DNA of 32,000 nt from positions 30,001 to 62,000 of the forward strand of contig NZ_LWLG01000008.1 in the NCBI RefSeq assembly GCF_001652585.1, written 5' to 3'. Both the position numbers and the translations under genes were made by a program. Source of the DNA: Thermosulfurimonas dismutans. Its GTDB lineage: Bacteria; Desulfobacterota; Thermodesulfobacteria; Thermodesulfobacteriales; Thermodesulfobacteriaceae. Shown piece by piece: positions 1,186 through 17,178 of the stretch; position 1 is the first letter of the stretch, and each line of letters opens with the position of its first letter. The notes below the pieces were generated by a model. It made no database searches. It was not told the DNA's origin and saw only the letters and a program-made list of their open reading frames with translations.

Positions 1186-1295
1186 CTTTTTTACACACAC
1201 TTATTGCCTTTTTTAATCTATTTTTTACTAGTTCAGCTACAGCCCAATAGACTTCTTTCTTCTTCGGTTAAACCGAGGGCGTCAAAAATAATGTG

Positions 1296-3137
1296 TCAAA
1301 TAACTTTATTACACATCCCTTTCACAATTTCAAACCAATTTTTTATTTCTTCCCATGCATTGAGTTCTTCTAAATGACTTTTAGTAATTTTCTGTGCTAC
1401 TTTTCCACAAAGAAGTTTCTTGGCATCTTTTTCTTTTATCCCCTTCTTGTTTGCAACTAACTTTGGAATATCAGCATTATCCCAATCTGAAATATTTCCA
1501 AGAATAATATTAAGCTCAGTTTCAATAAGCTTCTGGGGAATATAATTCTCTATCTCTCTTTTTTTTGTCAAAAGCCCATTTGAACCATCTTTTCGCTGTT
1601 TTACTTTTTCTATTTCATTTTTGTATTTTTCATCTTCATCTCTATCATAAAGATGAAATTCAATTGCATTAGTATTTCTAAAAATGTGACGGTCAATATG
1701 ATTTTTTAGTTGACTACCTCCCATTATATTGAAAGCTAATACCCCCGAATTAATGTAAACACTCAAATCGATTATTTCTTTTAGTTCTGGAATATTTTGA
1801 TTAATATTTATCAAAAATTTTTCGTCAGTTTCTCCCTCAACACACCAAATAACTTTTCCAATAGTTGGCATAATTCCTAAATTTTGTATAATTTTACTAA
1901 GAATATTTTCATCAAAAATTGCAACACTTACAGAGTTATTTTCCTTTTCTATATATTTAATGCTATCAGTTGGAAGTAACCTTATAAAAGAAGGGCTGTG
2001 AGTAGTAATTAACACTTGATAAATATCAGAATTTGCTAAACCTAATAAGCTGTCTAATAAAATTCTTTGTAAATCTGGATGTAAAGAAGTTTCAGGCTCT
2101 TCAATAGCATAAATAACATGAAAGGTACTTTCCTCTTTTCTTTTTTCTTTTTCAGAAATAAAGAAACTAAGAAGAACCAACCTTCTAAATCCACTCCCTC
2201 TTTTATTAAGAGGTACACCGTCATCTGTTTTAAACCCAATTCCCTTATAGACATCTTTCCATTTTAGGTCCACAGCTGAAGGAATATCTGGTTCAATTTT
2301 AGTTTCTTGTTTAGCTAATTTTTTAAATTGTTGTATAGTACTTTCAGCGATTGATTTTATCTGATTTTCAACTTTTTCGGCTATTTTAAGGAGTTGCTCT
2401 TTAATTTCCTCATCATCTTTAAATATTCTTTCAACTGCAATTTTAAGTGGATCCTGAATTTCAGCATCTTGATCAAGATTTTTGCGATCAGAGTGAAAAA
2501 GACCATATATAGGTAAATAATTTTTTAGTTTTTCCCAAATCGCCTTAGCATCTTCTGCGTCCACTTGAATTTCAATCTTTTCAAGTTTTAAATTTCCATC
2601 TTTTTGTTTATAAAATTTTCTTATTGATTCTCTTAAGATTGCATTAATATTTCTGTTGCTACATAATATAGAGTTGTCATTCACAAATTGTTGAAGCTCG
2701 CGCCGTTTCTTTCTTAAAAGGTCTTTAAGGAAATTATCATTAACTGGATGTATACAGGCAATAGTTGTTACTACCTTCAATCTGCCCGAAAATGTAAAGG
2801 TTTTCCATACTTCCAATAACTCATCCTCGTTAAGTAAAAATTCATTTTTAAGATTTGTAGGATATCTTTCATCAATTATCAACTCCTGTGGAAAATTTTT
2901 AAAAACAATACCTATTTTGAAACTATTTTTACCTTCTGCCCGCGCATGGACATTTATATCTTCATGATTCGTTTTAACCACTCCCTTTCCATCGTTAAGA
3001 AAAATATCAATAGCTTCAAGGATAGACGATTTCCCCTGATCATTTTTTCCTATAAAAGCTGTAAAATCATCCAAAGGAATTACAACTTTTCCCTTAAAAG
3101 CTCTAAAATCTTCAAGTATAACTTTCGCAATTTTCAT
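1296..3137 (-). CDS. OLD-family ATP-dependent endonuclease (ABC/AAA_15-21 ATPase plus C-terminal TOPRIM)
   Basis: 613 aa. Walker A is GKNDQGKSS, Walker B region is YAIEEPETSLHPDLQ, and ITTHSPSF follows. C-terminal TOPRIM signatures are VIWCVEGETDEKFL (Glu) and HLYDRDEDE (DxD). No UvrD-like partner is adjacent. The start overlaps the stop of the upstream 73-aa ORF by 4 nt. Confidence 0.8.
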   Translation of the reverse strand: MKIAKVILEDFRAFKGKVVIPLDDFTAFIGKNDQGKSSILEAIDIFLNDGKGVVKTNHEDINVHARAEGKNSFKIGIVFKNFPQELIIDERYPTNLKNEFLLNEDELLEVWKTFTFSGRLKVVTTIACIHPVNDNFLKDLLRKKRRELQQFVNDNSILCSNRNINAILRESIRKFYKQKDGNLKLEKIEIQVDAEDAKAIWEKLKNYLPIYGLFHSDRKNLDQDAEIQDPLKIAVERIFKDDEEIKEQLLKIAEKVENQIKSIAESTIQQFKKLAKQETKIEPDIPSAVDLKWKDVYKGIGFKTDDGVPLNKRGSGFRRLVLLSFFISEKEKRKEESTFHVIYAIEEPETSLHPDLQRILLDSLLGLANSDIYQVLITTHSPSFIRLLPTDSIKYIEKENNSVSVAIFDENILSKIIQNLGIMPTIGKVIWCVEGETDEKFLININQNIPELKEIIDLSVYINSGVLAFNIMGGSQLKNHIDRHIFRNTNAIEFHLYDRDEDEKYKNEIEKVKQRKDGSNGLLTKKREIENYIPQKLIETELNIILGNISDWDNADIPKLVANKKGIKEKDAKKLLCGKVAQKITKSHLEELNAWEEIKNWFEIVKGMCNKVI

Positions 3138-3355
3138 TCTCCTTCACCTCTTTCTAACAACTTACACTTTTGAATATTATCCTTTTTAAAACAGATGTGT
3201 TTTAAAAAAACATTTTTCTCTATTAGGCCAATTTCTTTTGGGGTTAAATTATAAAGTTTGCAAACTAAACGGTCTATTTGTTTCTCAAGGGCGGTGGTGT
3301 CGGCGGAGCAGCTGTTGGTTTGGTTTAAATAAAGAATTTTAAATTCTGCAAACAT
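3134..3355 (-). pseudogene. 73-aa ORF carrying only the C-terminal tail motif of type IIG/PglX-like methyltransferases; probable relic of a deleted or replaced gene
   Basis: The sequence ...ADTTALEKQIDRLVCKLYNLTPKEIGLIEKN... matches the terminal adt..LE..ID.LVY.LYgLT.eEI.iiE tail found at the extreme C-terminus of Eco57I/MmeI/PglX-type enzymes. No methyltransferase body precedes it. The ATG is 1 nt after the Res-like stop and the stop overlaps the OLD ATG, so it may still be translated. Confidence 0.4.
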
Positions 3356-3356
3356 T

Positions 3357-6300
3357 TTATATTATTTTTTCAAACATTTTCTCAATGTATGTCTCCTTGT
3401 CATCCTTTTGAAAAAGGACATGGCGATTTTCGAGTTCTTCTTTAGTAAGGCCCCACCATTTGATATCGCTGTAAAGAGTATAAGAAACGATAAAAGAATG
3501 GAGCTTCAACTGAGGATCACCTAATTTGCGTTCTATTTCCTTGATGCTCTGATAAAATCTCAACTTGGGATCATTAGGGCCTTCACGTTTTCGGATTCCC
3601 TTGGGATCAATAAAGGCTACATGTTGAATATCTGGTAGAAGTAGCCAAAGAATAAAATCGGGGTAAAAATTTCCGGCCTCAAAAAACCCTATTCCTCTGC
3701 GGCTACGATTGCGTAAAAGATAAAGCTCCTTATTTTGGAAAAAGTCTCTATTTTTCTTGTAGAAATTCCGCAAGTCGAATAGAAAATCCCTTTCACTTTC
3801 GGAATCTAAAATCACAGGCCTTACTTCAATAAAATCTCCTCGAATATAAAGTAAAGGTTGATATAAATGGCGCCCAAAATTGATAGCTAAAATGTTTTCA
3901 AATTCGAAATCCCGTTTAAACGTTCCAGACTGGACTAGGTTCTTTAGCTCCTCCAACTTTTTCACAATATCTTCTCGTGAAGCTTCGATATAAATACGAT
4001 ACTTTTCAAAAAAGTTCGGATCGTCTGGTCTTAGTTCGGAAACTTCGAGATATTCATTCTCCCATTCACGCTTGCAATATGAATAATGTCTATCTAAATA
4101 CTTTTTGAGAAGGGTTACCGCAATTTCCTGCCAACGACGAACTTGTTCAAAACTTTTAAATTCCATTTCTTCCCGGGGGATGTAAAGCTCGTACCACGAT
4201 TTATCGGTCAGGAGCTTTGGGATTTCGTCTCTCTCAAGCCTTACATTGTGCCAGGAACGTTCGGCTTTATATTCTTGAAGCTCAAAGTAAATTTGGTCGA
4301 TATCGAGAAAAGCAACGTGTTTTTCTTCGAAGAAACAAAGGTCTTTCTCTGCCCTTTGTTTGGAACCTATTCCAGCGCCACTTTCCAAAGCCTGAAGGCG
4401 GGGATACCAGTCTACAACTACTTTGTAACGTCTTAAGTATTCGGTTACTTCTCCAAAGTAAGGTTTCGGGCCATTGCGCTTAAAATCGATCCCTTCTTTT
4501 AAACGAACAATCTTTAATGGTCGGCTGCTGTTAAAATTTTTGACTACAGGAAGAATGAATTCAATGCGATCTTCATTGGTCGGGAGACCTTCTTCCTCAA
4601 GATATTCTTTAAATTGCCGCATGTAATCGGCTCTAACTCCGAAAACATTTAGCGTTTCCAAAATCTCAATATATTTAGGCGGTTCAATTCCTTCCAAACG
4701 GCGGCTTCGTTTGAGGCAGTAATCTTTACCTTTCAAGCGCACTCCGCGGCCGAATAGCTGAATAATTTGAGCTCCTTCTTTTTTTCCAATATTCATCAAG
4801 CCCATGGTGCTTACACGCCAGCTGTTCCAGCCCTCGGTAAACTTACGGGAGCCGATGAGAATGTTCACTGTGGAATCTTCCTCGTTGAGATTATGAAAGA
4901 GACTTCCAGAAATTACCTTTTCAGTAATAACCAGATTAGGATGGTTTTCACAAAGTTTCAGTAAATTCCCTGGATCACCTACATTGATAACACCAAAGGG
5001 TTCGTTATCTCCCACTTTAATGGCGATTTCGCCCTCAGCGTCTTTCAAATGTTCTAGATGCAGAGCGCCTGGAGCCTTGGTATTGAAAACGATTTCCAAA
5101 ATGTCGTGATAGACCTCTTCGGCTGAAAGTTTAAGAGTATTCAAATAGCGGAAAACCCCAGCAAAGAGTTCGTGGCCTTTCTTGTCCAAAAGTCCGGAAC
5201 GTCCCTGGAGAAGCTGTTCAATAATCTCTATACTTTCGGAACGATTTTTTATGAAATTTGCCAAAAAGAGCAAAATATCAAGAACGTCTGAAACTTTTCG
5301 GCCATGTTGTGTGCGTACAGCATTTACGCTGCCACCTACAAAAACCCATAAGGGCTTGGCTAAAAGGTAAGGCCGAAATTCTTCTTTTTTATCCAGGTAA
5401 AGTCTTAGTTGTTGATAGAAGGTAAGAAGCCCGGCGGTAAGATATTTTTTGCGTATGACTTCGTCGGAATCGTCTTCCAAATTGAGGATGCGATAATCCT
5501 TACCGTAACCATCTTGATAAAAATAGCGATAGGAATAGTCAAAGATGATACACTTGGCGTAAAGAGCTTCCAGTTCTTTATCGCCTTTGACGGCTTGGCC
5601 AAAAGTGGCGGAATATTCAAAGGAAAAGCCCTTCTCACAGAGTTTATCGCGCCGCGAAAGCCATGAACTTTCTTTTCCGCCGGAGGCTCCGCGGTGCCCT
5701 TCATCTACGAGGACAAGATTATTCCCTTCAAAGGTCTCTGGGGGGATGGTTTTTTCGCCGGCTTCTTCGCGAAGTTTGTGAATATCTATAATCAGGACTG
5801 TCTCCCGAGCAAAGAGCCCTCCACTTTCCTTACGGAAGATCTCCGCCGGAATGCCGGAAAGATTAAATTCTTCCAGGTGTTGAAGGGAAAGCCCTTCATT
5901 CGGCGTAAGCAAGATAATGCGGTTCAATTCTTCTGGCTTTCCATATAACCTAAGGTAGTGCAGATATTGCAGGAGGTTCACGTGCATTAAAAGTGTTTTT
6001 CCGCTTCCCGTGGCCATCCAGAAGACCAGTTTGTTGAGATCTCCCTTTTCGAAAGGTTTAAGTTCTTCCTCGGGATAATTTTCCTTGAAACGCTCAAGAT
6101 AAGCATTCAGAGAATTGAGTAGCCCCTCGAGGTTTCGAAAATAGCGGTCCAGATAAATCTCCGTGAAAAGCAAAGCCAGATATTGGAAATATTTGGGATA
6201 AAGGACATGGCCTAAACGATTACGATTTTCGGTTATTTTTCTCCAATGGCGCACAATGTTTTCATCGTAACGAAGAAGATCCTCTGGTGTTAAAGGACCA

Positions 6301-6506
6301 GTACCCTCAATTTGCTTCACCAGCTCATGATAGAATTTAGTGACATTGTTTTCGTCAAAGCCTTCGAGTTCTGGCCGCTTCAGGGCTTGAGCCAGACTAT
6401 CAAAAGAATCTTTGCCAAAAAGAGATAAAACCCAGCGATTTAATACCAGCCGCTTTTCGAAAGGCAATTTAGGTTTTGATTGATGTTTAGTTCTTTTCTT
6501 CGGCAT
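3357..6506 (-). CDS. Type III restriction Res-like SF2 helicase with C-terminal PD-(D/E)xK nuclease
   Basis: 1049 aa. Helicase motifs are WMATGSGKTLLMH (I), LVLVDEGHRG (II, DEGH), YSATFGQ (III) and QLFGRGVRL (VI). The C-terminus has GNFYPDFILWLL...VAFIDPKGIR, which matches the Y-x-PDF ... (D/E)-x-K-G pattern of Res-type endonuclease domains. Confidence 0.8.
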   Translation of the reverse strand: MPKKRTKHQSKPKLPFEKRLVLNRWVLSLFGKDSFDSLAQALKRPELEGFDENNVTKFYHELVKQIEGTGPLTPEDLLRYDENIVRHWRKITENRNRLGHVLYPKYFQYLALLFTEIYLDRYFRNLEGLLNSLNAYLERFKENYPEEELKPFEKGDLNKLVFWMATGSGKTLLMHVNLLQYLHYLRLYGKPEELNRIILLTPNEGLSLQHLEEFNLSGIPAEIFRKESGGLFARETVLIIDIHKLREEAGEKTIPPETFEGNNLVLVDEGHRGASGGKESSWLSRRDKLCEKGFSFEYSATFGQAVKGDKELEALYAKCIIFDYSYRYFYQDGYGKDYRILNLEDDSDEVIRKKYLTAGLLTFYQQLRLYLDKKEEFRPYLLAKPLWVFVGGSVNAVRTQHGRKVSDVLDILLFLANFIKNRSESIEIIEQLLQGRSGLLDKKGHELFAGVFRYLNTLKLSAEEVYHDILEIVFNTKAPGALHLEHLKDAEGEIAIKVGDNEPFGVINVGDPGNLLKLCENHPNLVITEKVISGSLFHNLNEEDSTVNILIGSRKFTEGWNSWRVSTMGLMNIGKKEGAQIIQLFGRGVRLKGKDYCLKRSRRLEGIEPPKYIEILETLNVFGVRADYMRQFKEYLEEEGLPTNEDRIEFILPVVKNFNSSRPLKIVRLKEGIDFKRNGPKPYFGEVTEYLRRYKVVVDWYPRLQALESGAGIGSKQRAEKDLCFFEEKHVAFLDIDQIYFELQEYKAERSWHNVRLERDEIPKLLTDKSWYELYIPREEMEFKSFEQVRRWQEIAVTLLKKYLDRHYSYCKREWENEYLEVSELRPDDPNFFEKYRIYIEASREDIVKKLEELKNLVQSGTFKRDFEFENILAINFGRHLYQPLLYIRGDFIEVRPVILDSESERDFLFDLRNFYKKNRDFFQNKELYLLRNRSRRGIGFFEAGNFYPDFILWLLLPDIQHVAFIDPKGIRKREGPNDPKLRFYQSIKEIERKLGDPQLKLHSFIVSYTLYSDIKWWGLTKEELENRHVLFQKDDKETYIEKMFEKII

Positions 6507-6512
6507 TCTGGC

Positions 6513-6983
6513 TTATTTTATAGCGCTCAAAAGATTCTCGGCCCGGATTTTTCTGTACTTCCTATTTCGAGGTTGCCGACCGTGTGACCCACCTGCAATT
6601 ATTACAAAAGTCCTCGAAGGATTTATTTGAAGCCCTAGATTTTCAAAAAGATAGCGGGCTCCTCTTTCTTTATTTTCAAGCTCGGCTTCTTCATGTTTCC
6701 CAAGTTCAAGCAGAAAGAATTTGACCCGGATCAACCCAGATTGTAGCTTGGCATATATCAATAATATGTCCGGCAAAGCTACAGATGAATCCAATTCAGC
6801 AAAGTGCTTCAGACATGGCATATGATGCCTTTTTATATCAATATTTACCATCAGGATAAGCTCGTCCGGTTCGATGGTGGGGAAAGAAACGGTTACTCCT
6901 TTTTCTTTAATAGAATTACCTCTTATCAGGCACTGAAAGAGGCGAAAAAGCCCTATTTCACTGCTCTCTCTTAAGAATTTCAT
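6513..6983 (-). CDS. Hypothetical 156-aa protein, partner of the upstream ATPase; no family recognised
   Basis: The ORF start overlaps the ATPase stop by 26 nt. GGGGGA lies 8 nt upstream of the ATG. The only motif-like stretch is LPDILLIY...FFLLELGKH, a weak and unproven PD...E..K-like pattern. Coding status rests on ORF length and operon context. Confidence 0.5.
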   Translation of the reverse strand: MKFLRESSEIGLFRLFQCLIRGNSIKEKGVTVSFPTIEPDELILMVNIDIKRHHMPCLKHFAELDSSVALPDILLIYAKLQSGLIRVKFFLLELGKHEEAELENKERGARYLFENLGLQINPSRTFVIIAGGSHGRQPRNRKYRKIRAENLLSAIK

Positions 6984-8436
6984 CCTGAAGTTCCCCCAGA
7001 AGACCTAGTTTTTCCCAAAGGGCTTCAGAGACTTGCGAAAATGTGCTCCAGTCAATATCAACCTCCGGGACTTCTTTAGGAATCTTCCGGATGTCTTCTA
7101 CCTGGCCGTCCGTCCGGAAAAAATAGGCCGAAAATCTGGAAGGGTCCAACAAGGCCTCCTCAGGCACCTCAAAAGGAGGGGCTTTAAGAATATTTTTTAA
7201 GCGTTCTTCTAGAGAAGAAAGACCGTTTTCTTTTATTTTTTCGCGGATTCGATAAGACCAAGCCAGAAAATTGAAGGTGTCAAGGATGTAAGGGCTGTGG
7301 GTGGTCAATAGGACTCGTAGGCCCAGGTTGACCGCCATGGCTAGGGCTATGGCCAGAATCACCTGAGCTTCAGGATGCAGATGCATTTCCGGCTCATCTA
7401 TCACCAGAAAGGCCCCTTCGGGAGCGCTTCTCAAAAACTTCTCCAGGGGAAGCAGGGCCTTAACCCCCGAACTGGCTCCGGAAATTTTTATCTCTCCTTC
7501 TCCAAAATTGAACCAAAATTCATCTTTTTTGAAATTAATTCTTCCTTTAAGTAATTTTTGCTCTAGAAGAGCTATCACTTTATCATAAACTTGAGAGACT
7601 TTTTTCCTCTCACTAAGCAAAAGAAACGTTAAAAAATCTTCAAAGACTTCCGGAAATTCGATATATTGTAAAAGAGAAAAAAGTTTTTTGCGCCATTTTT
7701 TGATAGATATATTTTCTCTCCATAATTGTGTGAGCTGATTTTTCAAGACAAACCATTGACGATAAAAAAGAAAAGACGTGCGTTCGGAAGGAATTATTAA
7801 ATTATGTCTAGGAAATCCTAAAAAATAAGCAAATTCTTCGCAAAATGTCTCTTCAAAAAAATAGTACTCAGTATCTGTATCATATTCTTCCAGATATTCT
7901 CCAAAAACATGTTCGTCTTGACTGTCATAAGGTATATAGACTTCAAAAATATTACCATCTTTTTTCAAGAAAGCAGAATAAAATAATCTACCAACTTCTG
8001 CTCCTTCCAGAGTATTTTCATCTATCTCTCCTACTATTCCAGAAATAGGAATATCACCCTCAAATTCCAATTTTTGTACCTTTTCTTCTTTTGTAATCAA
8101 GGATATTTCAAGTTTAGGTATTTTATTCTCTATACCGAAATATTTTCGCCAAAAATTGGGTAGCATCGATTCTGCAATTTCTTTTTTCCAAGCTTCTATC
8201 CATTGTTCTTTGAGTTCTTCAAAATTGAATTTGAGACGCTCATGTAAAAAAAGCTCGGAAATCTTTTCTTCGCCCAGGCCGCACTGGTCAGGATAGGTGT
8301 TCAGTAAGGCGTGTATCAGATAAGCGGTATATGTTTTTCCGGTATTGTTCGGTCCAATAAAGACCGTAAGAGGTCGCCAAACGATCCGAGAATCTTTTAC
8401 TGGCCCTAACCGTTTAATGTCAAGAATTAACTCCAT
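6958..8436 (-). CDS. ABC-type AAA_21/AAA_15 family ATPase (same superfamily as OLD N-domain, RloA, AriA and PtuA-type defense ATPases)
   Basis: 492 aa. Walker A is GPNNTGKTY, Walker B plus signature is FLVIDEPEMHLHPEAQ, and LLTTHSPYILD follows. AGGAG RBS is upstream. A long variable middle region lies between the two ATPase half-sites. Confidence 0.8.
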   Translation of the reverse strand: MELILDIKRLGPVKDSRIVWRPLTVFIGPNNTGKTYTAYLIHALLNTYPDQCGLGEEKISELFLHERLKFNFEELKEQWIEAWKKEIAESMLPNFWRKYFGIENKIPKLEISLITKEEKVQKLEFEGDIPISGIVGEIDENTLEGAEVGRLFYSAFLKKDGNIFEVYIPYDSQDEHVFGEYLEEYDTDTEYYFFEETFCEEFAYFLGFPRHNLIIPSERTSFLFYRQWFVLKNQLTQLWRENISIKKWRKKLFSLLQYIEFPEVFEDFLTFLLLSERKKVSQVYDKVIALLEQKLLKGRINFKKDEFWFNFGEGEIKISGASSGVKALLPLEKFLRSAPEGAFLVIDEPEMHLHPEAQVILAIALAMAVNLGLRVLLTTHSPYILDTFNFLAWSYRIREKIKENGLSSLEERLKNILKAPPFEVPEEALLDPSRFSAYFFRTDGQVEDIRKIPKEVPEVDIDWSTFSQVSEALWEKLGLLGELQDEILKREQ

Positions 8437-8457
8437 TATTTTTTCTCCTATTGAGTT

Positions 8458-11400
8458 TTATACATCTCTTACTTCAAACATTCTTTTCAAAAATTCTTCT
8501 TCAATAAGCCTGACTTTCCAGGTATGGTCTTCGCGGCGGAGATTTTCTAAGAAATTATCGCCGTTCACATAGATGATGTCGAACTCCTGGTCTCTGGTGT
8601 TGTACCCCTGCTTTCTAAACCATTCATTAAGCTTCTCAGCGTCCATCTCTTTAGTATTGCGCCAGAGGATAAGGACTTTCTCTCCTTGTGGATTTTCGCC
8701 GGTGATCACGCGCACGCCACGGATATGATCTACAGTCTTTACTCTCAGACCTATAAGATAGTTGAAGGTCTCCACCATATCCACTTTGACCCGGCGGGTA
8801 TCGCCCACAGTAGTGGTGGCAATTTCCATTTCGTAATTGAAAGGATCTTCAAAGCGTTCGACATTCAAAAGGCTTTCCCGAGTTTCAAACTCCAGCATGT
8901 AGCGCAGGATGTAATCCTCACGAAACTCCCGATTTTCATAAAGGAGTTTTTGTTGAATTTCGGTGCGTTTGAGTTCCAGATTGTTAAGGGTATCTTCGTA
9001 AGATTCTAGACGAATGTATTTGAGGAAGTGGCTTATGCCGTTTAGATTGCCGTCCTTATCCGGCTTGGGCTTGCCGTCCTTCCAATCACGGGAATAAATA
9101 ATCTTCTTTATACGGGGAAGGAGCACGGTGTCGAAATAATCCGCCACCTCCACCAGGATATATTTCCTTTTCCCGCCATCTTCGCGATTGAGATTGATCA
9201 CCGCATGTGCCGTGGTGCCGGAGCCGGCGAAGTAGTCGAGGATGAGGTCTGAATGGTTTGATACTGCATAAATTGCATCAGATACTGTATAAATAGACTT
9301 AGGATACAAATTTTCGTCAAATTTTAATCCTAATTCGGTTAATATACGAGTTCCATAATCTCCGGCTATATACTTCGGATCATCCCAAACAGTTTTAAAT
9401 TGTTTTTCTGTATTAGCTTTTAAAATCTGAATTTCGCCCTCACGAGTAATATGGACTTTAAGTAAATGCTTGATTTTTTCTATAGAATCTCTTGAATATC
9501 TCCATTTTCTTTCTATTCCTTGTTGATCTACTGGATAAATAGCTACTATTTGGTCATTTATGTAAATATTAGCTTTTCCTGGATGAAAATTCTCATCACA
9601 TACATCACCAAAACCTACAATGTTTTTATTTTTAATGTTTACATAAATAGGATAAAAACAATTTCTTGCTGTTTCTCTTTCGGATTCTCTGCCCCATTTT
9701 CTGAGATTCACGTATTCCCATTCTTCTTTTGGAATAGGCTTTCCATGTATTTTTGGTAATTTATGTGGAATACAAAAATAAGCAAAATCATGATTATAAG
9801 AAAAATATTTTCCCTGAATTCCTTTTTTATTGTGAATAATGGAAACGCAAATTTTTTCAAAATGATCTTCTGGAAAATGTAGTGATAGCAAACGGCCAAG
9901 TAATTCCTGTTCATTTTCATCAATAGCTATTATATGGCTTCCATCTTCTGTAGCAAAAATTCGACTTAAGGCGAGTCGATTATCTATCAATGTAAGCCAA
10001 GAGGAATGTTTATAATCATTCTTGTAAAGAATTTCCGTTGTTTTTGAATTATACGGCGGATCAATGTAAATACACTTAACCTGCCCCCTATACCGCTCGA
10101 GCAAAAGATTTAACGCCTGGAAGTTTTCGCCGTGGACGAGAAGACCGTCAAGCTCCTCGTCCAGGTTATCAAAAGAGGAAATAAGCTTGAGCTTGAACTC
10201 TTCGTCAAAATGGCGGGTGTCTATCACCAGATGGGGATGGGCTTTCAAAAATTCTATGGTCGGCGGTTCTGACCAGCCCGGCCGAACTAGATCGCCCTTT
10301 ATCTCATGGACATGGTAAAGTTTTTTCCACTCTTCGATTTGGTCCTGATTTTCAAGGATACGTTCAATGAGCCAGTTTCGTTTTTCCTCGTCCTCAATGG
10401 CAAAAATACGGTCAAGGGTTATGCAATATTGCGTCTCCCAGATAAATTTCTTTTTGAGCCAGAGTTTTTTCTGAAAGTTTTCAAGCTGGGCGAGAAAATC
10501 GATGATCTTGTGCCCGATGCGGCGGATAGCTTTAACTTTAGCGAGATATTGTTCTACCCGTGGCGCAGACTCGTTTTCTATATCGTCCAGGTGAACGACC
10601 TCATTCTTGATGTAAAAATCGAGCTCCCGGCGTAAGAATCCGCCCAGGTCTTTGTGGATGAAATAGTCAAAGGTGTTTCGGGCAGTAAAAGCGGCCAGAT
10701 GTTTCTCTAGAAGGGTTCGGTCTTTATTCTTTGGAGTAGGACGCGGCTCCTTGAGTTCTTTTTTCCAATCCTCAAAGCCATCGGTTTCCAAAAGAATAAA
10801 CTCGGCAATAGCCTTATTGATTTCTTCTTGTTTGCGGTCGTCCGGCCGGTATTCAAAACGAATAACCAGTTCGCCGGCTTCCTCCGCGATGGGATCGGCT
10901 TCGTGGAGCACAAAGCGACGTTTTTTAGAATTGGTAGTTTTTATATTGTCCCGGTCAGCCTCGGCTTGGACAACCTCGAAACGGACCCTTTTACCGGAAC
11001 GAAGTCTAAAAGCGTAATTGCGGAAATATTCGCTAGTTTTGATGTAATATTGATCGTAATTGGCCCAGTAAAGTTTTACTTCTTCACCGTTGTAAGGAAT
11101 GGCGTAAACATTTTCCTTATAGCGGCGTTTTGAAATGAAATCTCCCTCATCGTAGTAGCGACTGAAGAAGGTGTAGAGATGGGAATAGACTTCCTCTTCA
11201 AGCGCCGCTTGATCCGTCGTTCTTTGTAACTGGGCACGAAGCTCTTTGACTTTTGGAGATTGCTCAGGATCAACGCCAGCGTCTTTAAGCTGGTTTTCCA
11301 ATTTGATAAGCTCTTTTTCCAGAGCCTGCCGGCGCTCCTCGTCCATCTGGCCCAAAATTTCTTTCACTTGGGGGAGAAGATCTTCATTAAGAAAGCGAGA

Positions 11401-11514
11401 AATTTCTTCTCTCTTGGCATTCATGATGCGGTAGATGCCGAAATCAAGATCAGCGTGGTCAAATTGAAAAAGCTCGGCCAGAAGTTTTTTTAGTTTTTCA
11501 AACTGCTGGGACAT
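8458..11514 (-). CDS. Large beta-class N6-adenine/N4-cytosine DNA methyltransferase (type III Mod-like) with long N- and C-terminal extensions
   Basis: 1018 aa. Motif IV IYIDPPYN (around 10060) precedes motif I ILDYFAGSGTTAHAV (around 9240), which is beta-class order. WLTLIDNRLALSR and IIAIDENE resemble Mod-type methyltransferases. The N-terminus DLDFGIYRIMN is typical of large Mod-like enzymes as far as I recall. GGGGGAGG RBS is upstream. Confidence 0.85.
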   Translation of the reverse strand: MSQQFEKLKKLLAELFQFDHADLDFGIYRIMNAKREEISRFLNEDLLPQVKEILGQMDEERRQALEKELIKLENQLKDAGVDPEQSPKVKELRAQLQRTTDQAALEEEVYSHLYTFFSRYYDEGDFISKRRYKENVYAIPYNGEEVKLYWANYDQYYIKTSEYFRNYAFRLRSGKRVRFEVVQAEADRDNIKTTNSKKRRFVLHEADPIAEEAGELVIRFEYRPDDRKQEEINKAIAEFILLETDGFEDWKKELKEPRPTPKNKDRTLLEKHLAAFTARNTFDYFIHKDLGGFLRRELDFYIKNEVVHLDDIENESAPRVEQYLAKVKAIRRIGHKIIDFLAQLENFQKKLWLKKKFIWETQYCITLDRIFAIEDEEKRNWLIERILENQDQIEEWKKLYHVHEIKGDLVRPGWSEPPTIEFLKAHPHLVIDTRHFDEEFKLKLISSFDNLDEELDGLLVHGENFQALNLLLERYRGQVKCIYIDPPYNSKTTEILYKNDYKHSSWLTLIDNRLALSRIFATEDGSHIIAIDENEQELLGRLLSLHFPEDHFEKICVSIIHNKKGIQGKYFSYNHDFAYFCIPHKLPKIHGKPIPKEEWEYVNLRKWGRESERETARNCFYPIYVNIKNKNIVGFGDVCDENFHPGKANIYINDQIVAIYPVDQQGIERKWRYSRDSIEKIKHLLKVHITREGEIQILKANTEKQFKTVWDDPKYIAGDYGTRILTELGLKFDENLYPKSIYTVSDAIYAVSNHSDLILDYFAGSGTTAHAVINLNREDGGKRKYILVEVADYFDTVLLPRIKKIIYSRDWKDGKPKPDKDGNLNGISHFLKYIRLESYEDTLNNLELKRTEIQQKLLYENREFREDYILRYMLEFETRESLLNVERFEDPFNYEMEIATTTVGDTRRVKVDMVETFNYLIGLRVKTVDHIRGVRVITGENPQGEKVLILWRNTKEMDAEKLNEWFRKQGYNTRDQEFDIIYVNGDNFLENLRREDHTWKVRLIEEEFLKRMFEVRDV

Positions 11515-11535
11515 TTAGATCCTCCCCCTTAATTT

Positions 11536-14394
11536 TTATATAACCGACCATCTAATAGTAAAAAGAGGTTCTCGATAAGTCTTCTGTCTAAGTCTTCGCT
11601 CAAGTTGTTCGATAAGTTCATCCCGTTTGGCCAAAATTTCATCCTCGATATCAAAAATTTTTTGTCGTAAGCGGCGCTTTTTCCGTTCAAGCTCTTGAAG
11701 TTTACGCTGAATTTTGTGTTGTTCTTCAAGAGTGGCGGCCAAACGAGCCTGGCGCCTTAGGGCTTTTATCTGTTCTTTGGTTTGGTTAAGTTCCTGCTCA
11801 GCAGCCAAAATCATATCATCTGCCCATTTTTCAAGTTGTTCTCTTGCTTCCTGAAAGTAGCGGTTGTTTTCTTCAAGAGAGCGTGCAATGGTGGCCTGAA
11901 CATGACGTTCGGTCTCTGCCTCTAGGCGTTTGGCTACTTCTTGCGGAATTTGGACAGGTCCTTCCACTTCTCCACCGCAAAGGAAAAGTTTTTCGCATAT
12001 TTCCTGGTCGAGAGATTGACCCTCGTCAGTAACACCGGAAAAAAGTAAGTATTCCTCTTTTTGAAAAGATTCTATTACCAGCCTTTGTAAATGTATCCAA
12101 CCGGATTGACCTTTAAGGTTTTCAATCACAGTAATACGCGCAGGGTGGTTTGTTATATCAAAAATTACATGCATGGGAGGGGTAGGAAGCTTTTGGCCTT
12201 CGTTCAGAACATACTCTCCTAAGGGATGAGAAAAACGATAAAGAAACCGTGCTCCTATCTTTTTAGAACTTTGAGAGGTTTTCAAATAATAACGGCCGAG
12301 GGGAATTCCTTCTATCGGAGAACGATAGAGCTCAAAACTCAAAGATTTATCATCAAATTTGGCGCAATCTTTAAGAATATTCTTGGTAAGACCCCAAAAC
12401 ATACGACTTAGACGATCAAGATATTGCTCTGTTTCGCTTAAGCGGAGTTTTAGGCGTTCGTGAACTTCTTCGTCAAAATGTTCCAAAAGTTTGCGGCGGG
12501 TTTCAGCTAAAGTGCTCTTGATCTTTTCATCAAGCTCTTTTTGGAGCTTACGAAAGGCTTCATCGATTTCTTCTGGGGTACGGCAAGTTTGGTATATTTC
12601 CAAAACCCTTTTTTCGAAATCTACGCCTGATTCTATAGCTCCAAGGACTTCATCCGAAGCACCAAAAAGTCCAGTGAAAAGACGAAATTTTTCGGTCAAA
12701 AGCTCGTAAACTCTTTGATCTGCAGCGTTGCGCTGGTTTAAAAAATTGATTACCACTACATCAAACTTTTGGCCATAACGATGGCAACGACCGATACGCT
12801 GTTCGATACGCTGGGGATTCCAAGGAAGATCGTAGTTAATCACCAGAGAACAGAACTGGAGATTTATTCCTTCCGCCCCGGCTTCCGTGGCAATCAAAAT
12901 TTCGGCATAGTCTCGGAAATGTTCAATTAGAGCCGTTCTGATGTCCACTTGCTTATTACCGGTTATACGGCCGGTGCCGGCGTTAACTTCAAGCCATTTT
13001 TCATAAATGCGATGGCTTTCAGGGTCTGTATTAGTGCCACTAAAAGTGACTATGCGCCCAGCATAGCCGTTGGCTTCTAGGAAATCTTTGAGAAACTGTT
13101 GAGTACGGCGAGACTCTGTAAAAATAACGGCTTTTCGAGCCGCCCCCATTTCCTCCATTTTTTTAAAGCCAATTTCTAAAGCCTTAAGAAGAGCTCGGGC
13201 CTTACTATCTATGCCTATGCTTTTCGCCCAGCGAATGAGGGAGTCAAGCTCAGAAATTTCGGCTTCAAGTTTTTGTAAATCGATTTCTTCTGTGGAGAGT
13301 TCTTCCTCCGGCTCAGTGTCTTCTTCAATAAGTTCGCTTTCGAGCTCTTCCTCATTGAGGATGCGTTCGAGCAGGTCGCTATCATCTTTTTCTTTGAGCC
13401 CATCTCGAAGTTCGATAAGTCTGTCACGTAAAGCCTCTAGCATGGCGGCTACTGCTCTCGGAGAAGAAGCCAAAAGTTTTCTGGCAATTAGAATCATGAG
13501 ATGACGATGTCGCTTTGGAAAGGCGTAAGTATCTTCACGCTGTAGATAGGATGATATAGCTTCATAAAGGCCTTGCTCGTCATCCGAAGGAGTAAAGGGT
13601 TGGGTAATAAGACGCCTTTCAGTGTAGCGAATATATTCGGTTACCTGACGCCTAAGAGTTCGATAACAAAACTTTTGAAGCCTTTCTCGTAGCTCTAACA
13701 AATTACCGTTTCGTCCCATATATTGGGCACGGAAAGCTTTTAGATCTCCAAAAATGCGTTCGTCTATCAAAAGAGAAAGTCCATAGAGTTCGAGTAGAGA
13801 GTTTTGAAGCGGAGTGGCCGTCAAAAGAATTTTAGGACGGTCTTCTAAAGCAAATTTTATATTTTGTCCGATCCGATTCGAAGGCCGATAAAGATTTCGC
13901 AGTTTATGGGCTTCGTCTATAACTACTAGATCCCAATTAACTGCGCGAATGTAATGGGCCATCCGGCTGGCATAGTGCATAGAAGTAATAACAATTCGGT
14001 CACAATCGAAAGGATTGGGATTTCCTTGTGCCATAGATTCTTTGAAAGATTTAGCATCAAGAATAATTGTAGGCAGGAAAAATTTTTCCTCTAATTCAAG
14101 AGACCATTGTTTGCGAATAGAAGCTGGACAAATAATCAAAAGTTTACGCTTGCGTTCTGCCCAAAACTGGCATAGTACTAACCCGGCCTCGATAGTTTTT
14201 CCAAGACCTACTTCATCAGCCAAAATAACTCCTTTGGAAATAGGAGAACGCAAAGCAAAAAGAGCGGCTTCAATTTGGTGAGGATTAAGATCAACCGCGG
14301 CATCAAAAAGAGAGTGCGATAGACGGGTTAATTCTTGGCTACTACGTTGTTTAATAGCGTAAGCGTAATATTTAGCGTGATAGTCGGTAATCAT
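11536..14394 (-). CDS. SNF2/SWI2-family helicase with C-terminal extension ending in a coiled coil
   Basis: 952 aa. Motifs are LADEVGLGKTIEAG (I), LVVIDEAHKLRN (II), LLLTATPLQNSLLELYGL (III) and GAEGINLQ...DLPWNPQRIEQRIGRCHRYGQK (V-VI). It is the first gene of the co-directional array. Confidence 0.85.
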   Translation of the reverse strand: MITDYHAKYYAYAIKQRSSQELTRLSHSLFDAAVDLNPHQIEAALFALRSPISKGVILADEVGLGKTIEAGLVLCQFWAERKRKLLIICPASIRKQWSLELEEKFFLPTIILDAKSFKESMAQGNPNPFDCDRIVITSMHYASRMAHYIRAVNWDLVVIDEAHKLRNLYRPSNRIGQNIKFALEDRPKILLTATPLQNSLLELYGLSLLIDERIFGDLKAFRAQYMGRNGNLLELRERLQKFCYRTLRRQVTEYIRYTERRLITQPFTPSDDEQGLYEAISSYLQREDTYAFPKRHRHLMILIARKLLASSPRAVAAMLEALRDRLIELRDGLKEKDDSDLLERILNEEELESELIEEDTEPEEELSTEEIDLQKLEAEISELDSLIRWAKSIGIDSKARALLKALEIGFKKMEEMGAARKAVIFTESRRTQQFLKDFLEANGYAGRIVTFSGTNTDPESHRIYEKWLEVNAGTGRITGNKQVDIRTALIEHFRDYAEILIATEAGAEGINLQFCSLVINYDLPWNPQRIEQRIGRCHRYGQKFDVVVINFLNQRNAADQRVYELLTEKFRLFTGLFGASDEVLGAIESGVDFEKRVLEIYQTCRTPEEIDEAFRKLQKELDEKIKSTLAETRRKLLEHFDEEVHERLKLRLSETEQYLDRLSRMFWGLTKNILKDCAKFDDKSLSFELYRSPIEGIPLGRYYLKTSQSSKKIGARFLYRFSHPLGEYVLNEGQKLPTPPMHVIFDITNHPARITVIENLKGQSGWIHLQRLVIESFQKEEYLLFSGVTDEGQSLDQEICEKLFLCGGEVEGPVQIPQEVAKRLEAETERHVQATIARSLEENNRYFQEAREQLEKWADDMILAAEQELNQTKEQIKALRRQARLAATLEEQHKIQRKLQELERKKRRLRQKIFDIEDEILAKRDELIEQLERRLRQKTYREPLFTIRWSVI

Positions 14395-14541
14395 TCAGTA
14401 CTTCTTTATCTTCTGACTTTATCTTCTGGCTCACGACGCCGATGATCTCGCGCTCCTCGGTCATCTCGATTTCGGGATATTCGTAGTTTTTCCTAAGCCA
14501 CCCTACAAGTATTTCTTTCCCCCTTTAAAAGGTTTTTCTAC

Positions 14542-14870
14542 CTAACTTAAATTTTCTTGACAAGCTAAAGTGAGATAAGATGTGAAGGCGGAAAGCCTGG
14601 GTTTCCTGATAACAGCCTTTTTAGAAACTACATCAACCTTTACTCCTAAAATGCGTTCTAAATAATCTTTGAGGCCAACAATCTTTAAGCCGATTAGCCT
14701 TTCAAATTCCACTAAAATATCAATATCACTACCCAAGATTTCCTCCCCTGCACACAAGAATAAAAAGATTAATCTCTTTAAACCCGAAATTCTTTAGCTA
14801 ATATTGATTTGTGCTCTTGAAAAATGCGTTTTATGTCGTCTAAAGTTTCGTTCCCATAACGCCCGAGCTC
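14542..14870 (-). pseudogene. Decayed MNT-type nucleotidyltransferase (HEPN/MNT toxin-antitoxin family antitoxin)
   Basis: The C-terminal piece (ORF 14542..14757) reads ...EEILGSDIDILVEFE...GLKDYLERILGVKVDVVSKKA. It has the GS and DxD motifs but the spacer between them is lost. My translation of 14781..14870 gives the matching N-terminal piece ETLDDIKRIFQEHKSILAKEFRV. That piece ends at an in-frame TAA (14780..14778), has no start codon, and is frame-shifted relative to the rest. Confidence 0.55.
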
Positions 14871-14876
14871 CTTTTT

Positions 14877-17165
14877 CTATCCCTTCGCACTCATTACGAT
14901 TACCTGCCAGCCCTCCTTGGTAAGGGAATGCAATATCTCCATCGTCTTTTGGGTGCGGTCATGGTCAAAATAGGCGAAGGGTTCGTCAAGCAGCAAAAAG
15001 GCCTTGCGGTCGAAAAAGAGACGAATCAGGGCCAATCGGGCGGAGAGAAGGAGCTGAGAAGAGGTTCCGTCAGAAAGCTCGTTAATGGGAAAGGATCTTC
15101 CGTCCTTACGGATAGCTCTCCATTTGGTTTTAAAGGTGTCGCCGTCGAAAAAGAGGCTTTCGGTCTTGAATTTTACGCCAGTGTAATTTCCGTAGGTAAT
15201 ACGGGAGAAGAGGTCGCTTACGCTGGATTCGAACTCTCCTAAATATCGACGATTAATCTCCCCCCTCAACTCCGCAAGCACCTCAAGCCCAAACCGCAGG
15301 ACTCTTTCCATATTTAGCATGCGCCGGAGCTTCTCTTCAAGCTCTCTTTTCTGGAAAAGTAGGTCGTCAAGCTCTTTTTTATCCGGCTCTTTTTGGGTCA
15401 AGCCTTCATAAAGGCTCTTTTTCTTCTCTAGCTCCACTATTTCTTCCCGTAGTTCTTCAAGCCGCCTTTCTTTCTCTTCGATTTTGGTTTTCAAATCTTC
15501 GAGATCTAGGTGCGAACACTCTTCTTCAAACTCTTTAGCTTCCTTAAGAGTGAGGTTTTCTATCTCTTTTTCGAGGGATTTAAGCGCCTCCTCTTGACGA
15601 TCCCTCTCATCCTCAAACTTCTGTCTTTTAGGTTCAAGCTCGCTTTTCCGTTTTTGAATCTCCTCAAGCCCTTTTTCTACTTCCTCAAGCCTTCGGCTTA
15701 ACGCTTCTCTTTCTTTTTCCTTTTTTTCTATTTCTTCGTCGATATTCTCCAATTCCTTTATTTTGTCCGATAAGGCTCTGGCTTTCTCTCGCAGTCGGAC
15801 CAGATCTTCCTCGGTATCGAATCTTGTGGAAAGACGCTCCTTTTGTTCAAGTAAACTTATCAAGTCCTCCAGGGTTTCAATGCTTCCGTAAGTTTTGGCC
15901 AGTTTTTCGACTTTTTTCTTTACTTTTTCTATCTCCTGGGAGGTATAGATTTGAAGCGAAAGATCCCGGTAGCGAATAAGGGCTTCGCCTTCGAATTCGT
16001 AAGCTTCCCCCGGGCCTAATTTAGCTTGATCTCCAACCCCGACTTTGTCTTTAGCTTCCAAGACCCTGATGATGCCCCTTGACCTATGGCACAGCCTTCG
16101 ATAGGTCTCCCAATCTAAAAAATCGGATCTCAGTTCTTTGGAACTCCGGTTTTGAAACTTCCCGAGTTTCCGGTTTAGTTCTTCTATCTCTTGTAAAAAT
16201 TTAATCTTTTGGTTGGTATCTTTGAGTTCCTGTTCTGCCTTTATTAACTCAAGTTTTTTCCTGTTTAGCTGGTTGATTTTCTCGAAAACTTCATTTTCTT
16301 GCCTTTTGAGCTTTTCTTTTTCTTCTAGTTTTTCCTTCTCTTTCTGGCCGTATTCTTTCAGTTGTTTTTCAAGGTCTTCAATTTTTTTCTTCAAATCTTT
16401 TATCTTATTTTCCGTTTCCTTGAAGGTGGCATAATTCAGTAATCTTTTGTCTCTTTCAATTTCAGCCTCAAGAGCCGTCTTCGCTTTAATTTTCTCTTCA
16501 AGCTCAGCTTTCGTTTTCTCAAGCTCCTCTTTGTTCCTTCGATATTCCTCGTGTCTTTTAATGGTTTCGGTTAAGCGTTCCTCTGTGCGTTTCAGCTCTT
16601 CCTTGAGGGATTTTTCCTCTTTTCCAAAGGGCCTGCTCTTGAACCTCTGTGTGCTCCCTTTCTGGAAAATGAGTATGTCTTCTAGCAGCTTTTTCACTTC
16701 TTCGATGCTTGCCGATTTGAGGACTGTGTCAAGCAAACTCTTTAGGCCCTTTCCGGTTTCGGTGGCAAGATCCCTTTCCTTTAAGACCAGAAGGCCGTTT
16801 AAGACCGCGGGAAAGAAATGATACCCCTTTCGCTCCAGAAAATCCTCTATGGCCTTGGCTCGGCCGAGATCCGTACCATCGCTTCCCGAAAGCCGCACCG
16901 TTCCGTCCTGAGCATTAACTTTGAGGGTGTAGGTGTGCTCTCCAATCTCGAAGGTTACTTCCAAGACCGGATCTATCTCTTTTCCCTCGGTTCTCTTGGC
17001 CTTGAGTCTTTCCGGGGAAAGTGAAAAGGCGTCTTTTATGCCCTCGATGAGGGTAGATTTTCCCGTCTCATTCGGAGCCGTAAAGACAAAGGGATTGTCC
17101 TTAAACTCAAATTCCCTGTCCTCTAGGATTTTATAGTTTTTGAAGGATACCTTGAGGAGTCTCAT
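14877..17165 (-). CDS. SbcC/Rad50-like (YhaN/SbcE-like) coiled-coil ATPase without a zinc hook
   Basis: 762 aa. Walker A is APNETGKST, followed by a very long K/E-rich coiled coil. The C-terminal signature and Walker B are LSDGTSSQLLLSARLAL...FLLLDEPFAYFD. The protein has only two Cys and no CxxC. GGGGGA RBS is present, 13 nt after the SbcD-like stop. Confidence 0.8.
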   Translation of the reverse strand: MRLLKVSFKNYKILEDREFEFKDNPFVFTAPNETGKSTLIEGIKDAFSLSPERLKAKRTEGKEIDPVLEVTFEIGEHTYTLKVNAQDGTVRLSGSDGTDLGRAKAIEDFLERKGYHFFPAVLNGLLVLKERDLATETGKGLKSLLDTVLKSASIEEVKKLLEDILIFQKGSTQRFKSRPFGKEEKSLKEELKRTEERLTETIKRHEEYRRNKEELEKTKAELEEKIKAKTALEAEIERDKRLLNYATFKETENKIKDLKKKIEDLEKQLKEYGQKEKEKLEEKEKLKRQENEVFEKINQLNRKKLELIKAEQELKDTNQKIKFLQEIEELNRKLGKFQNRSSKELRSDFLDWETYRRLCHRSRGIIRVLEAKDKVGVGDQAKLGPGEAYEFEGEALIRYRDLSLQIYTSQEIEKVKKKVEKLAKTYGSIETLEDLISLLEQKERLSTRFDTEEDLVRLREKARALSDKIKELENIDEEIEKKEKEREALSRRLEEVEKGLEEIQKRKSELEPKRQKFEDERDRQEEALKSLEKEIENLTLKEAKEFEEECSHLDLEDLKTKIEEKERRLEELREEIVELEKKKSLYEGLTQKEPDKKELDDLLFQKRELEEKLRRMLNMERVLRFGLEVLAELRGEINRRYLGEFESSVSDLFSRITYGNYTGVKFKTESLFFDGDTFKTKWRAIRKDGRSFPINELSDGTSSQLLLSARLALIRLFFDRKAFLLLDEPFAYFDHDRTQKTMEILHSLTKEGWQVIVMSAKG

Positions 17166-17178
17166 AGCTGTTTCCCCC

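Follow-up and report, generated by a model that had tools for sequence, protein, structure and literature searches.

A type III-like SNF2-Mod-Res locus of Thermosulfurimonas dismutans that probably carries a nested ABC-ATPase/nuclease-type gene pair

Mod and Res, the two proteins of a type III restriction-modification (RM) system, are encoded in one cassette of Thermosulfurimonas dismutans together with three further proteins: a SNF2-family ATPase, whose gene leads the cassette, and an ABC-type ATPase and a 156-amino-acid (aa) protein, whose genes lie between mod and res. Do these five genes encode one machine or two units? We addressed this question computationally for positions 3357-14394 of a 32,000-nucleotide (nt) stretch of contig NZ_LWLG01000008.1 (positions 30,001 to 62,000 of the forward strand; hereafter, the window). 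An initial annotation, made from the letters alone, had read the five genes as one operon and as a self/non-self system more elaborate than a plain type III RM system. Judging from the predicted proteins and their gene neighbourhoods, the cassette is most probably a composite: a type III-like SNF2-Mod-Res RM system, in which an autonomous pair of an ABC-type ATPase and a nuclease-type protein is nested. We separate a three-gene system from a nested two-gene module because SNF2 is a conserved partner of Mod and Res, while the pair is variable cargo that is found elsewhere too.

Organization of the cassette

All five genes are encoded on the minus strand. In the order of reading, they specify the SNF2-family ATPase (952 aa; 11536-14394), Mod, a type III-like beta-class N6-adenine methyltransferase (1018 aa; 8458-11514), the ABC-type ATPase, which belongs to the PD-T4-4_A family (492 aa; 6958-8436), the small protein, which belongs to a tiny family without annotation (156 aa; 6513-6983), and Res, a type III-like SF2 ATPase with a C-terminal PD-(D/E)xK nuclease (1049 aa; 3357-6506). 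The open reading frames (ORFs) of all five proteins are intact. The SNF2-Mod and Mod-ATPase spacers are 21 nt each, the ATPase and small-protein genes overlap by 26 nt, and 6 nt separate the small-protein gene from res. These ORFs and spacings are exactly those given in the initial annotation. Pfam, NCBIfam and PADLOC agree with its four domain assignments and, like it, leave the small protein unassigned. The tight spacing supports the single operon that it proposed, and a promoter and terminator scan of 3000-15200 added nothing to this support. We infer the operon from the spacing alone because the counts in that scan were at the shuffle (chance) level and uninformative. The two units of the cassette are probably transcribed together.

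The public gene models of two of these proteins start later than ours: the small protein has 112 aa in them versus 156 here, and Mod has 969 aa versus 1018. The N-termini that are left out of the public models are conserved among homologues, so that the public starts of both proteins appear to be too late when the homologues are aligned. For the small protein, the conservation of residues 1-44 supports the 156-aa start, which overlaps the ATPase gene.

Predicted properties of Mod, Res and SNF2

Mod contains the Pfam domain N6_N4_Mtase (PF01555; 3e-17) at residues 479-791 and matches the PADLOC profile MTase_III (PDLC03646) with 774 bits. The DPPY motif at 485 stands ahead of FAGSG at 762, with the recognition domain between them; this is the beta-class order, as the initial annotation had said. 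Among proteins of solved structure, Mod matches Mbo45V, H. pylori Mod (2e-23) and EcoP15I Mod (1e-17), and the best-matched stretches of the solved type III Mods fall within residues 446-854. Outside the matched part, Mod has conserved extensions of about 450 aa at the N-terminus and about 160 aa at the C-terminus, and the motifs in the N-terminal extension are invariant in homologues. The family is large: there are at least 8000 homologues of about 1000 aa, and the 120 that were listed are 52-100% identical.

Res matches Pfam ResIII (5e-10) and the PADLOC profile REase_III (PDLC03654; 795 bits). Its motifs GSGKT and DEGH and the C-terminal PDF...IDPK at 949-969 are intact. Res had no sequence match to any solved chain, solved type III Res included.

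The SNF2 protein contains SNF2-rel_dom (1e-33) and Helicase_C (1e-20) in Pfam, and its motifs GLGKT, DEAH and QRIGRCHRYGQ are intact. Its best PADLOC match is DrmD (PDLC02619; 700 bits, residues 26-663). With the NCBIfam profile DISARM_DrmD_b (NF038318), it scores 704.7 bits, under the cut-off of 950; the alignment covers positions 21-653 of the 868 in that profile, and the C-terminal 300 aa or so lie beyond the matched region. BrxHI|BrxHII of PADLOC matches end to end with 237 bits (residues 30-913), and HmaA with 183 bits, far under the score of DrmD. The nearest solved relative is RapA (4e-36). Neither Pfam nor PADLOC recognised a nuclease or another effector domain in the SNF2 protein, and Pfam shows no NOV_C. 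By its profile matches and its gene neighbourhoods, we regard the SNF2 protein as a predicted DrmD/BrxHII/RapA-like protein that is a conserved accessory partner of the Mod-Res pair.

Conservation of the SNF2-Mod-Res order

One genome per species was scanned with an alignment of Mod, which gave 590 relatives. The best 80 loci were analysed with 10-kb flanks, and all of their ORFs were searched by phmmer with the window proteins as queries. Related loci that were compared with the cassette are given tags such as L001, L023 and L095 where they must be told apart. The 80 loci span Planctomycetota, Bacteroidota, Bacillota, Pseudomonadota, Cloacimonadota and Chloroflexota, and include an archaeon.

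A Res homologue lies downstream of Mod on the same strand in all 73 assessable loci. A SNF2 homologue lies upstream of Mod, again on the same strand, in 49 of 72 assessable loci (68%), a frequency that may be inflated in these best matches to the window Mod. The SNF2-Mod spacer is 121 nt or shorter in 34 of these 49 loci, and stop and start codons often overlap. Furthermore, the identity matrices of the three proteins are correlated, with r=0.79 for Mod and Res, r=0.59 for SNF2 and Res, and r=0.41 for SNF2 and Mod (Mantel p=0.001 each), and this may partly stem from shared host phylogeny. In the Res tree, SNF2 is missing from the nine loci of a basal clade; most of the main clade has it, and its losses there are scattered.

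These data bear on the possibility that SNF2 is a mere frequent neighbour, that is, a separate single-gene defence beside a plain two-gene type III system that does the restriction. The 23 of 72 loci without SNF2 fit this possibility, as do the genes inserted between SNF2 and Mod in 15 of 49 loci. A SNF2 protein, HmaA, can defend alone (PMC11232893). However, SNF2 co-occurs with Mod across phyla, in the tight arrangement described above, its distances correlate with those of Res, and its presence is structured by clade on the Res tree. Moreover, HmaA needs its NOV_C nuclease domain, and the window SNF2 has no recognisable effector domain. Thus, we consider it improbable that SNF2 is only a neighbour. 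The comparison of loci shows SNF2 to be a conserved accessory of this Mod/Res lineage that is inherited along with it. On the same evidence, the conserved unit is taken to be Mod-Res, and SNF2 is a frequent, co-inherited yet dispensable third gene.

In a subclade without SNF2 (L023, 6428-9145; L061; L041), a protein of 905 aa, in which a UvrD-helicase is joined to a PDDEXK_1 nuclease, is encoded upstream of Mod. This substitution can also be counted for SNF2 as a neighbour, and it suggests that the position upstream of Mod is an interchangeable "accessory helicase" position.

A compact version of the trio was observed on the E. coli plasmid pEC316_2 (NZ_CP018955.1, 29496-39248; L092). There, HTH, SNF2, Mod and Res genes follow each other without cargo; the HTH gene that precedes the trio is of the Cro/C1 type, and the element lies between insertion sequence elements on a conjugative IncF plasmid. 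The compact element is also present on Klebsiella, Raoultella and Citrobacter plasmids. PLSDB has the trio on 11 plasmids of Klebsiella, and among 5426 complete E. coli genomes, 2 carry it; a megablast search with window positions 3000-15000 as query matched neither complete E. coli genomes nor plasmids. In annotated records, the three genes are labelled "SNF2-related protein", "DNA methyltransferase" and "DEAD/DEAH box helicase". We found no name for a system of SNF2 and type III Mod/Res in the searchable literature, which is incomplete; that SWI2/SNF2 helicases occur in RM systems has been stated in general terms only (PMC3710099).

The Mod-Res junction as a cargo slot

In the window, the junction between Mod and Res (6507-8457, minus strand; 1951 nt) is filled by the ATPase and small-protein genes. 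Of the 73 loci, 43 have Mod and Res overlapping or separated by less than 300 nt, and 30 have the junction occupied by 0.4-3.6 kb of diverse genes on the same strand. At least 13 of these 30 junctions encode an ABC-type ATPase. For example, HEC-01 (an AAA_21 ATPase and a DUF4276 protein; PADLOC scores of 455 bits for A and 228 bits for B) occupies the junction of 8-9 loci. Other junction ATPases are AAA_15/21 proteins with unannotated small partners, a DUF3696-tailed protein and a Ppl-like protein of 874 aa. The remaining cargo includes a YhcG/DUF1016 nuclease, AbiJ_NTD4, Fic/DOC, HTH-M78 with DUF4411, and an unannotated 844-aa protein that is followed by an HNH nuclease. By this comparison of neighbourhoods, the Mod-Res junction can be described as a recurrent cargo slot in this lineage.

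The families of the window ATPase and small protein were found in none of the 80 Mod loci. Among Mod-Res loci, they are confined to the close relatives L001-L006 and L087. Even there, the other content of the slot differs. In L001 and L002, the order is SNF2, Mod, ATPase, small protein, NsnA (413 bits), a NsnB-like ATPase, a 245-aa protein, a TumE pair and Res; the additional cargo of L001, with its Menshen-like NsnA/NsnB genes and TumE pair, is at 4788-8524. In L087, the TumE pair, which consists of a 100-aa protein and TumE (199-853), stands ahead of the ATPase. Thus, the content of the slot turns over fast even between close relatives.

The initial annotation had taken the five genes as possible parts of one system and had named a conserved SNF2-Mod-ATPase-small-Res order in unrelated genomes as a test. 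SNF2 was a conserved partner by this test, in many phyla; the ATPase/small pair was not, and other cargo fills the junction. The cassette is therefore read as a trio that harbours a separate pair and not as a single machine of five genes. In such a machine, all five components, including three NTPases, would be obligate partners in self/non-self discrimination. The co-direction and the 21/21/-26/6-nt spacing of the five genes speak for it, as does their occurrence in the same order in the metagenomic contigs L002, L003 and L006. However, these three contigs are close relatives, with small proteins that are 67-84% identical to that of the window. The pair is missing in all 80 of the more distant Mod loci, L001 and L087, although sister loci, have other genes in the rest of the junction, and the pair is also found away from Mod-Res. 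We therefore regard one integrated five-component machine as very improbable. The pair has the features of nested cargo instead: it is flanked by core genes of its host on the same strand, varies among relatives and is found elsewhere too.

A locus of Bacteroidales (L077) carries two different pairs of an AAA_15/21 ATPase and a small protein, at 7091-8885 and 11966-13782; one of them lies between SNF2 and Mod and the other between Mod and Res. No family matched their small proteins, which are 200 and 221 aa long.

The ABC-type ATPase and the 156-aa protein

The ATPase matches AAA_15 (8e-23) and AAA_21 (1e-17) in Pfam, and its ABC motifs are complete: GPNNTGKT (Walker A), FLVIDE (Walker B), SSG (signature) and TTHS (H-loop). 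The best PADLOC match is PD-T4-4_A (131 bits), and the ATPases of relatives match the full-length PD-T4-4_A profile (L089, 199 bits; L088, 140 bits). There are about 8 close homologues with 40-77% identity, after which the identity drops to about 30% in a larger, mostly cyanobacterial family.

A small ORF that overlaps the stop codon of the ATPase gene follows it in every context examined. The contexts are diverse. In L087, the pair is in the Mod-Res slot; in L088, it adjoins a PLD-SNF2 protein; in L098, it adjoins an AAA_14/DUF4143 ATPase; in L089, it stands among housekeeping genes; and in L100, it stands in a region rich in toxin-antitoxin genes. A 51%-identical copy in L095 (342-5100) lies downstream of dCTP-deaminase (DCD)-like, radical-SAM/SPASM and UDG-family genes, which are possibly another defence or DNA-modification cluster.

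The 156-aa protein had no match in Pfam, NCBIfam or PADLOC; PD-T4-4_B of PADLOC was likewise without a match, and a search of all 9 members of the family against Pfam at E<=10 gave nothing meaningful. The family is very small. Four homologues were found among 5.8 billion clusters, and six representatives in an exhaustive search of 1.8 billion. Scanning metagenomes with an alignment of the small protein yielded four loci, of which L094 is a duplicate of L003 and the other 3 are new short contigs.

An AlphaFold model from 7 sequences reached a predicted local distance difference test score (pLDDT) of 89.2 and a predicted template modelling score (pTM) of 0.87; an earlier model from 4 sequences was weak (pLDDT 65.7). 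The core of the model is beta-beta-beta-alpha-beta: a helix follows three antiparallel strands, and more strands come after it. In the model, the conserved D72 (D/N) opens core strand 2 and E93 (E/D) closes strand 3. This modelled placement is typical of PD-(D/E)xK enzymes. The 156-aa protein is remotely homologous to the small partners in L089 and L100 (L089, E 9e-14 with the A3 profile, which was built without L089; L100, E 2e-6 with the A4 profile), and both keep the canonical D...ELK. In the subfamily of the window protein, E/D-L-G-x-H stands in place of ELK, and G95 and H97 are invariant. From the model, the 156-aa protein is a probable restriction-endonuclease-fold effector of the ATPase. 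From the family matches, we conclude that the pair is a putative divergent member of the PD-T4-4/WonAB-type ATPase/nuclease class.

Is this pair autonomous, or does it guard its host system? As a PrrC-like guard, it would be kept silent by Mod/Res and would be triggered when an anti-restriction protein of a phage disables Mod/Res. PrrC is an ABC-ATPase-type protein that is found almost exclusively inside type I RM systems (10.1101/2024.01.29.577857), and the ABC-type ATPases in many Mod-Res junctions recall this arrangement. The small-protein gene abuts or overlaps the start of res: the gap is 6 nt here and 3 nt in L087, and the genes overlap by 7 nt in L006. In addition, each relative of the pair with at least 51% identity adjoins Res or a gene for a PLD-SNF2 helicase where its downstream neighbour is visible; the contigs of L095, L096 and L097 stop short of this neighbour. 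Against the guard, relatives of the pair stand alone in the housekeeping and toxin-antitoxin contexts of L089 and L100, the pair in L095 has no Mod upstream, and the cargo of the slot is very heterogeneous, Fic, AbiJ and YhcG included. Furthermore, HEC-01 and similar embedded modules are found away from their hosts as well (10.1101/2024.01.29.577857). A guard function is therefore unlikely, although it is a little less so than the view of SNF2 as a mere neighbour.

Proposed mechanism and weighing of the evidence

If the cassette is a type III-like trio with a nested autonomous pair, it may work as follows. As in type III enzymes such as EcoP15I, Mod would methylate an asymmetric site and thereby mark the host sites. 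By analogy with the same family, a Mod-Res complex would recognise unmethylated sites on incoming DNA; the SF2 ATPase of Res would communicate over a long range along the DNA, and the C-terminal PD-(D/E)xK domain would cut. In type III systems, the asymmetric site is hemi-methylated, and cutting requires ATP and two unmethylated sites in inverse orientation. More speculatively, SNF2 may be a double-stranded DNA translocase that aids the loading, scanning or recycling of Mod-Res, as has been proposed for its counterparts in Hma, class 1 DISARM and type 3 BREX. In the pair, by analogy with WonAB, the ATPase would most likely sense a cue of infection and then release or activate the small nuclease. 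The pair would then be an independent second line of defence with protection of the abortive-infection type. Nesting would give the pair and the trio co-inheritance and co-expression, and it need not imply that either depends on the other.

Several points weigh against this reading. Restriction and methylation are predictions, as are a contribution of SNF2 and a nuclease activity of the small protein. As described above, the choice of best matches may have raised the frequency of SNF2, and shared host phylogeny may contribute to the matrix correlations; since 23 of 72 loci are without SNF2, it is dispensable for the persistence of Mod-Res. The mechanism of Mod-Res may differ from that of EcoP15I, because Res matches no solved Res and Mod has large extra domains. 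The close relatives of the pair adjoin Res or PLD-SNF2 enzymes wherever the downstream neighbour is visible, and a functional link of the pair to such enzymes is conceivable. Foldseek searches of the 156-aa model against PDB and BFVD gave no significant match (best E ~0.01); the sub-threshold matches are rich in restriction-fold proteins (BamHI, PaqCI, BsmI, Cap4, Mrr-like, VRR-NUC and MmcB-like). Finally, the 156-aa protein may not be an active nuclease, because its subfamily has replaced the canonical Lys.

Genomic island and neighbouring genes

The cassette is in an island that is delimited by tRNA-Asn (25114-25189, minus strand) and a tyrosine integrase gene (23663-24934, plus strand). The region of this edge also encodes a D12-class Dam-like methyltransferase (21711-22808, minus strand) and an AAA ATPase (19919-21172, minus strand). 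The G+C content of the cassette is about 0.39-0.42, as compared with about 0.53 in the adjoining core genes, and it steps down toward the start of the window from 0.53 (core) through 0.42 to 0.27.

Directly upstream of SNF2, at 14877-19820 on the minus strand, there is a cluster of three genes for a DUF2779 RecB/Cas4-like nuclease (498 aa), a SbcD-like phosphoesterase (357 aa) and a SbcC/Rad50-like ATPase (762 aa) with weak LmuB matches. A DUF2779 homologue is immediately upstream of SNF2 in two unrelated loci, L058 (5588-7048), where it overlaps SNF2 by 4 nt, and L059 (4740-6224). The DUF2779/SbcD/SbcC-like cluster may form a further defence module or join the trio on occasion as a fourth partner. 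We rejected DUF2779 as a core fourth partner, because it is upstream of SNF2 in just these 2 further loci.

The 482-nt spacer upstream of SNF2 contains a 71-aa fragment of a nucleotidyltransferase (NTP_transf_2, MNT-like; 14542-14757, minus strand). In L002, a HepT-like fragment (846-1031) is upstream of SNF2. These fragments look like relics of a HEPN/MNT toxin-antitoxin pair.

On the other side of the cassette, at 334-3137 on the minus strand, an OLD/AAA_15-type ATPase gene (613 aa) is followed by a gene for a SIR2_2-domain protein (288 aa). The G+C content of these two genes is 0.26-0.30, unlike the 0.41 of the cassette. This looks like a separate and independently acquired two-gene defence candidate.

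Significance

If SNF2 works with Mod-Res, the trio is a common three-subunit relative of type III systems that present annotation pipelines split: they now report a "type III RM" system and an orphan "DrmD-like" or "SNF2-related" gene. The trio would then be a simple and tractable model for the role of SNF2 proteins beside methyltransferases in DISARM, BREX and Hma, and the compact version on pEC316_2 is a convenient one for experiments. A three-subunit system would also link type III restriction to DISARM, BREX and Hma. Should SNF2 prove dispensable, one would be left with a passenger gene beside an ordinary type III system.

Relatives of the trio are present in hundreds of species and on IncF plasmids of Klebsiella and E. 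coli. A more far-reaching view, which we hold only tentatively and consider rather doubtful, is that the trio is a distinct, unnamed class of ATP-dependent restriction systems, with SNF2 as a subunit, the Mod-Res junction as a dedicated dock for ABC-ATPase/nuclease modules, and the 156-aa protein as the founder of a new effector branch without the Lys. As a part of this tentative view, the Lys-less branch may be coupled to the state that the restriction enzyme is in.

Apart from this, the Mod-Res junction makes "guilt by embedding" applicable to type III-like hosts and yields candidate defence genes, namely the 156-aa family and several partners of ABC ATPases.

Comparison with known systems

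The initial annotation could not assign the five-gene composition to one named system, and we likewise found none that covers all five genes. The nearest systems each share a part of it. Type III RM systems (EcoP15I/EcoP1I), which the locus would resemble most in its working, likewise combine a Mod that is a beta-class N6-adenine methyltransferase (PF01555) and, after it, a Res with SF2 motifs at the N-terminus and a PD-(D/E)xK domain at the C-terminus. However, an adjacent two-gene mod-res operon without a third subunit is not what we observed: Mod and Res are 1951 nt apart in the window, and SNF2 is the third gene in 49 of 72 loci. Moreover, the window Mod is about 370 aa longer, with its conserved N-terminal extension, the window Res does not match a solved Res, and the Mod-Res junction in its lineage is often split by cargo.

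Class 1 DISARM (DrmD + DrmMI + DrmABC) has the same arrangement of SNF2 immediately upstream of an N6-adenine methyltransferase, and DrmD is the best match of the window SNF2 (700 bits; 705 bits for DISARM_DrmD_b). The resemblance that the initial annotation had seen is thus borne out, as is the absence of DUF1998 (DrmB) and PLD (DrmC) that it had reported: among the 10 proteins scanned in the neighbourhood 334-19820, none had DrmA, DrmB or DrmC as its best match, and Pfam found neither DUF1998 nor PLD. The methyltransferases also differ, the window Mod being a PF01555 type III Mod and DrmMI a PF13659 protein; DrmMI does not appear among the 25 best of the 29 PADLOC matches of Mod. Finally, the restriction arm in the window is a Res nuclease-helicase. 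DISARM membership was rejected, since DrmA, DrmB and DrmC are missing and the SNF2 protein is below the DrmD_b cut-off. In the class 1 DISARM of Serratia, joint loss of drmD and drmMI weakened the protection against one phage (10.1101/2021.12.28.474362); this deletion shows a combined effect only and not the role of DrmD itself.

A RapA-like helicase beside a methyltransferase is also found in type 3 BREX (BrxHII), Hma and "BREX-related" systems, and BREX and Hma are hosts of embedded cargo too (PMC12839542; 10.1101/2024.01.29.577857). In contrast to their helicases, the window SNF2 has no fused NOV_C or HKD nuclease, and the methyltransferase beside it is a type III Mod, not PglX-like. In agreement with the initial annotation, which had reported PglZ and BrxC missing, PglZ, BrxC and PglX were not seen among the best-listed PADLOC matches of the 10 proteins scanned. 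BREX membership was rejected on this ground, SNF2 alone being BrxHII-like. Hma membership was rejected because HmaA scores 183 bits versus 700 for DrmD and NOV_C is lacking; among the 25 best-listed PADLOC matches, Mod and the ATPase had no match to the methylase and ATPase of Hma. Thus, the locus shares the module of SNF2 beside an adenine methyltransferase with class 1 DISARM, type 3 BREX and Hma, and it does not share their other defining genes.

The nested pair is closest to PD-T4-4, which consists of an ABC ATPase and a PD-(D/E)xK nuclease (10.1101/2025.07.10.664194), and to its relatives, WonAB and the "OLD-ABC ATPase + novel REase" operon; WonAB works by abortive infection (PMC12137116). 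Like the window pair, they have an ABC ATPase of about 450-500 aa and a small protein whose gene comes next and overlaps. The window ATPase agrees with this by its best match, PD-T4-4_A, and the small protein would do so by its predicted restriction-endonuclease-like fold. Unlike them, the window small protein did not match the profile of PD-T4-4_B: it forms its own tiny family, in which the Lys of D...ExK is lost, and the pair is nested within an RM system.

Both the embedding of defence cargo and pairs of an ABC ATPase and a nuclease are already established concepts. The commonest embedded cargo is an ABC ATPase with a nuclease, and HEC-01-like embedded modules were picked for testing since they are also found outside hosts (10.1101/2024.01.29.577857). 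That study did not analyse type III hosts, its one "type III" being "DRT type III" (10.1101/2024.01.29.577857). The window pair resembles PrrC in type Ic RM systems and HEC-01 and Septu in Hma in being a module on the same strand between the genes of a methylation system, and HEC-01 itself occupies the Mod-Res slot of related loci. The host is what differs: in the window, it is a type III-like SNF2-Mod-Res trio.

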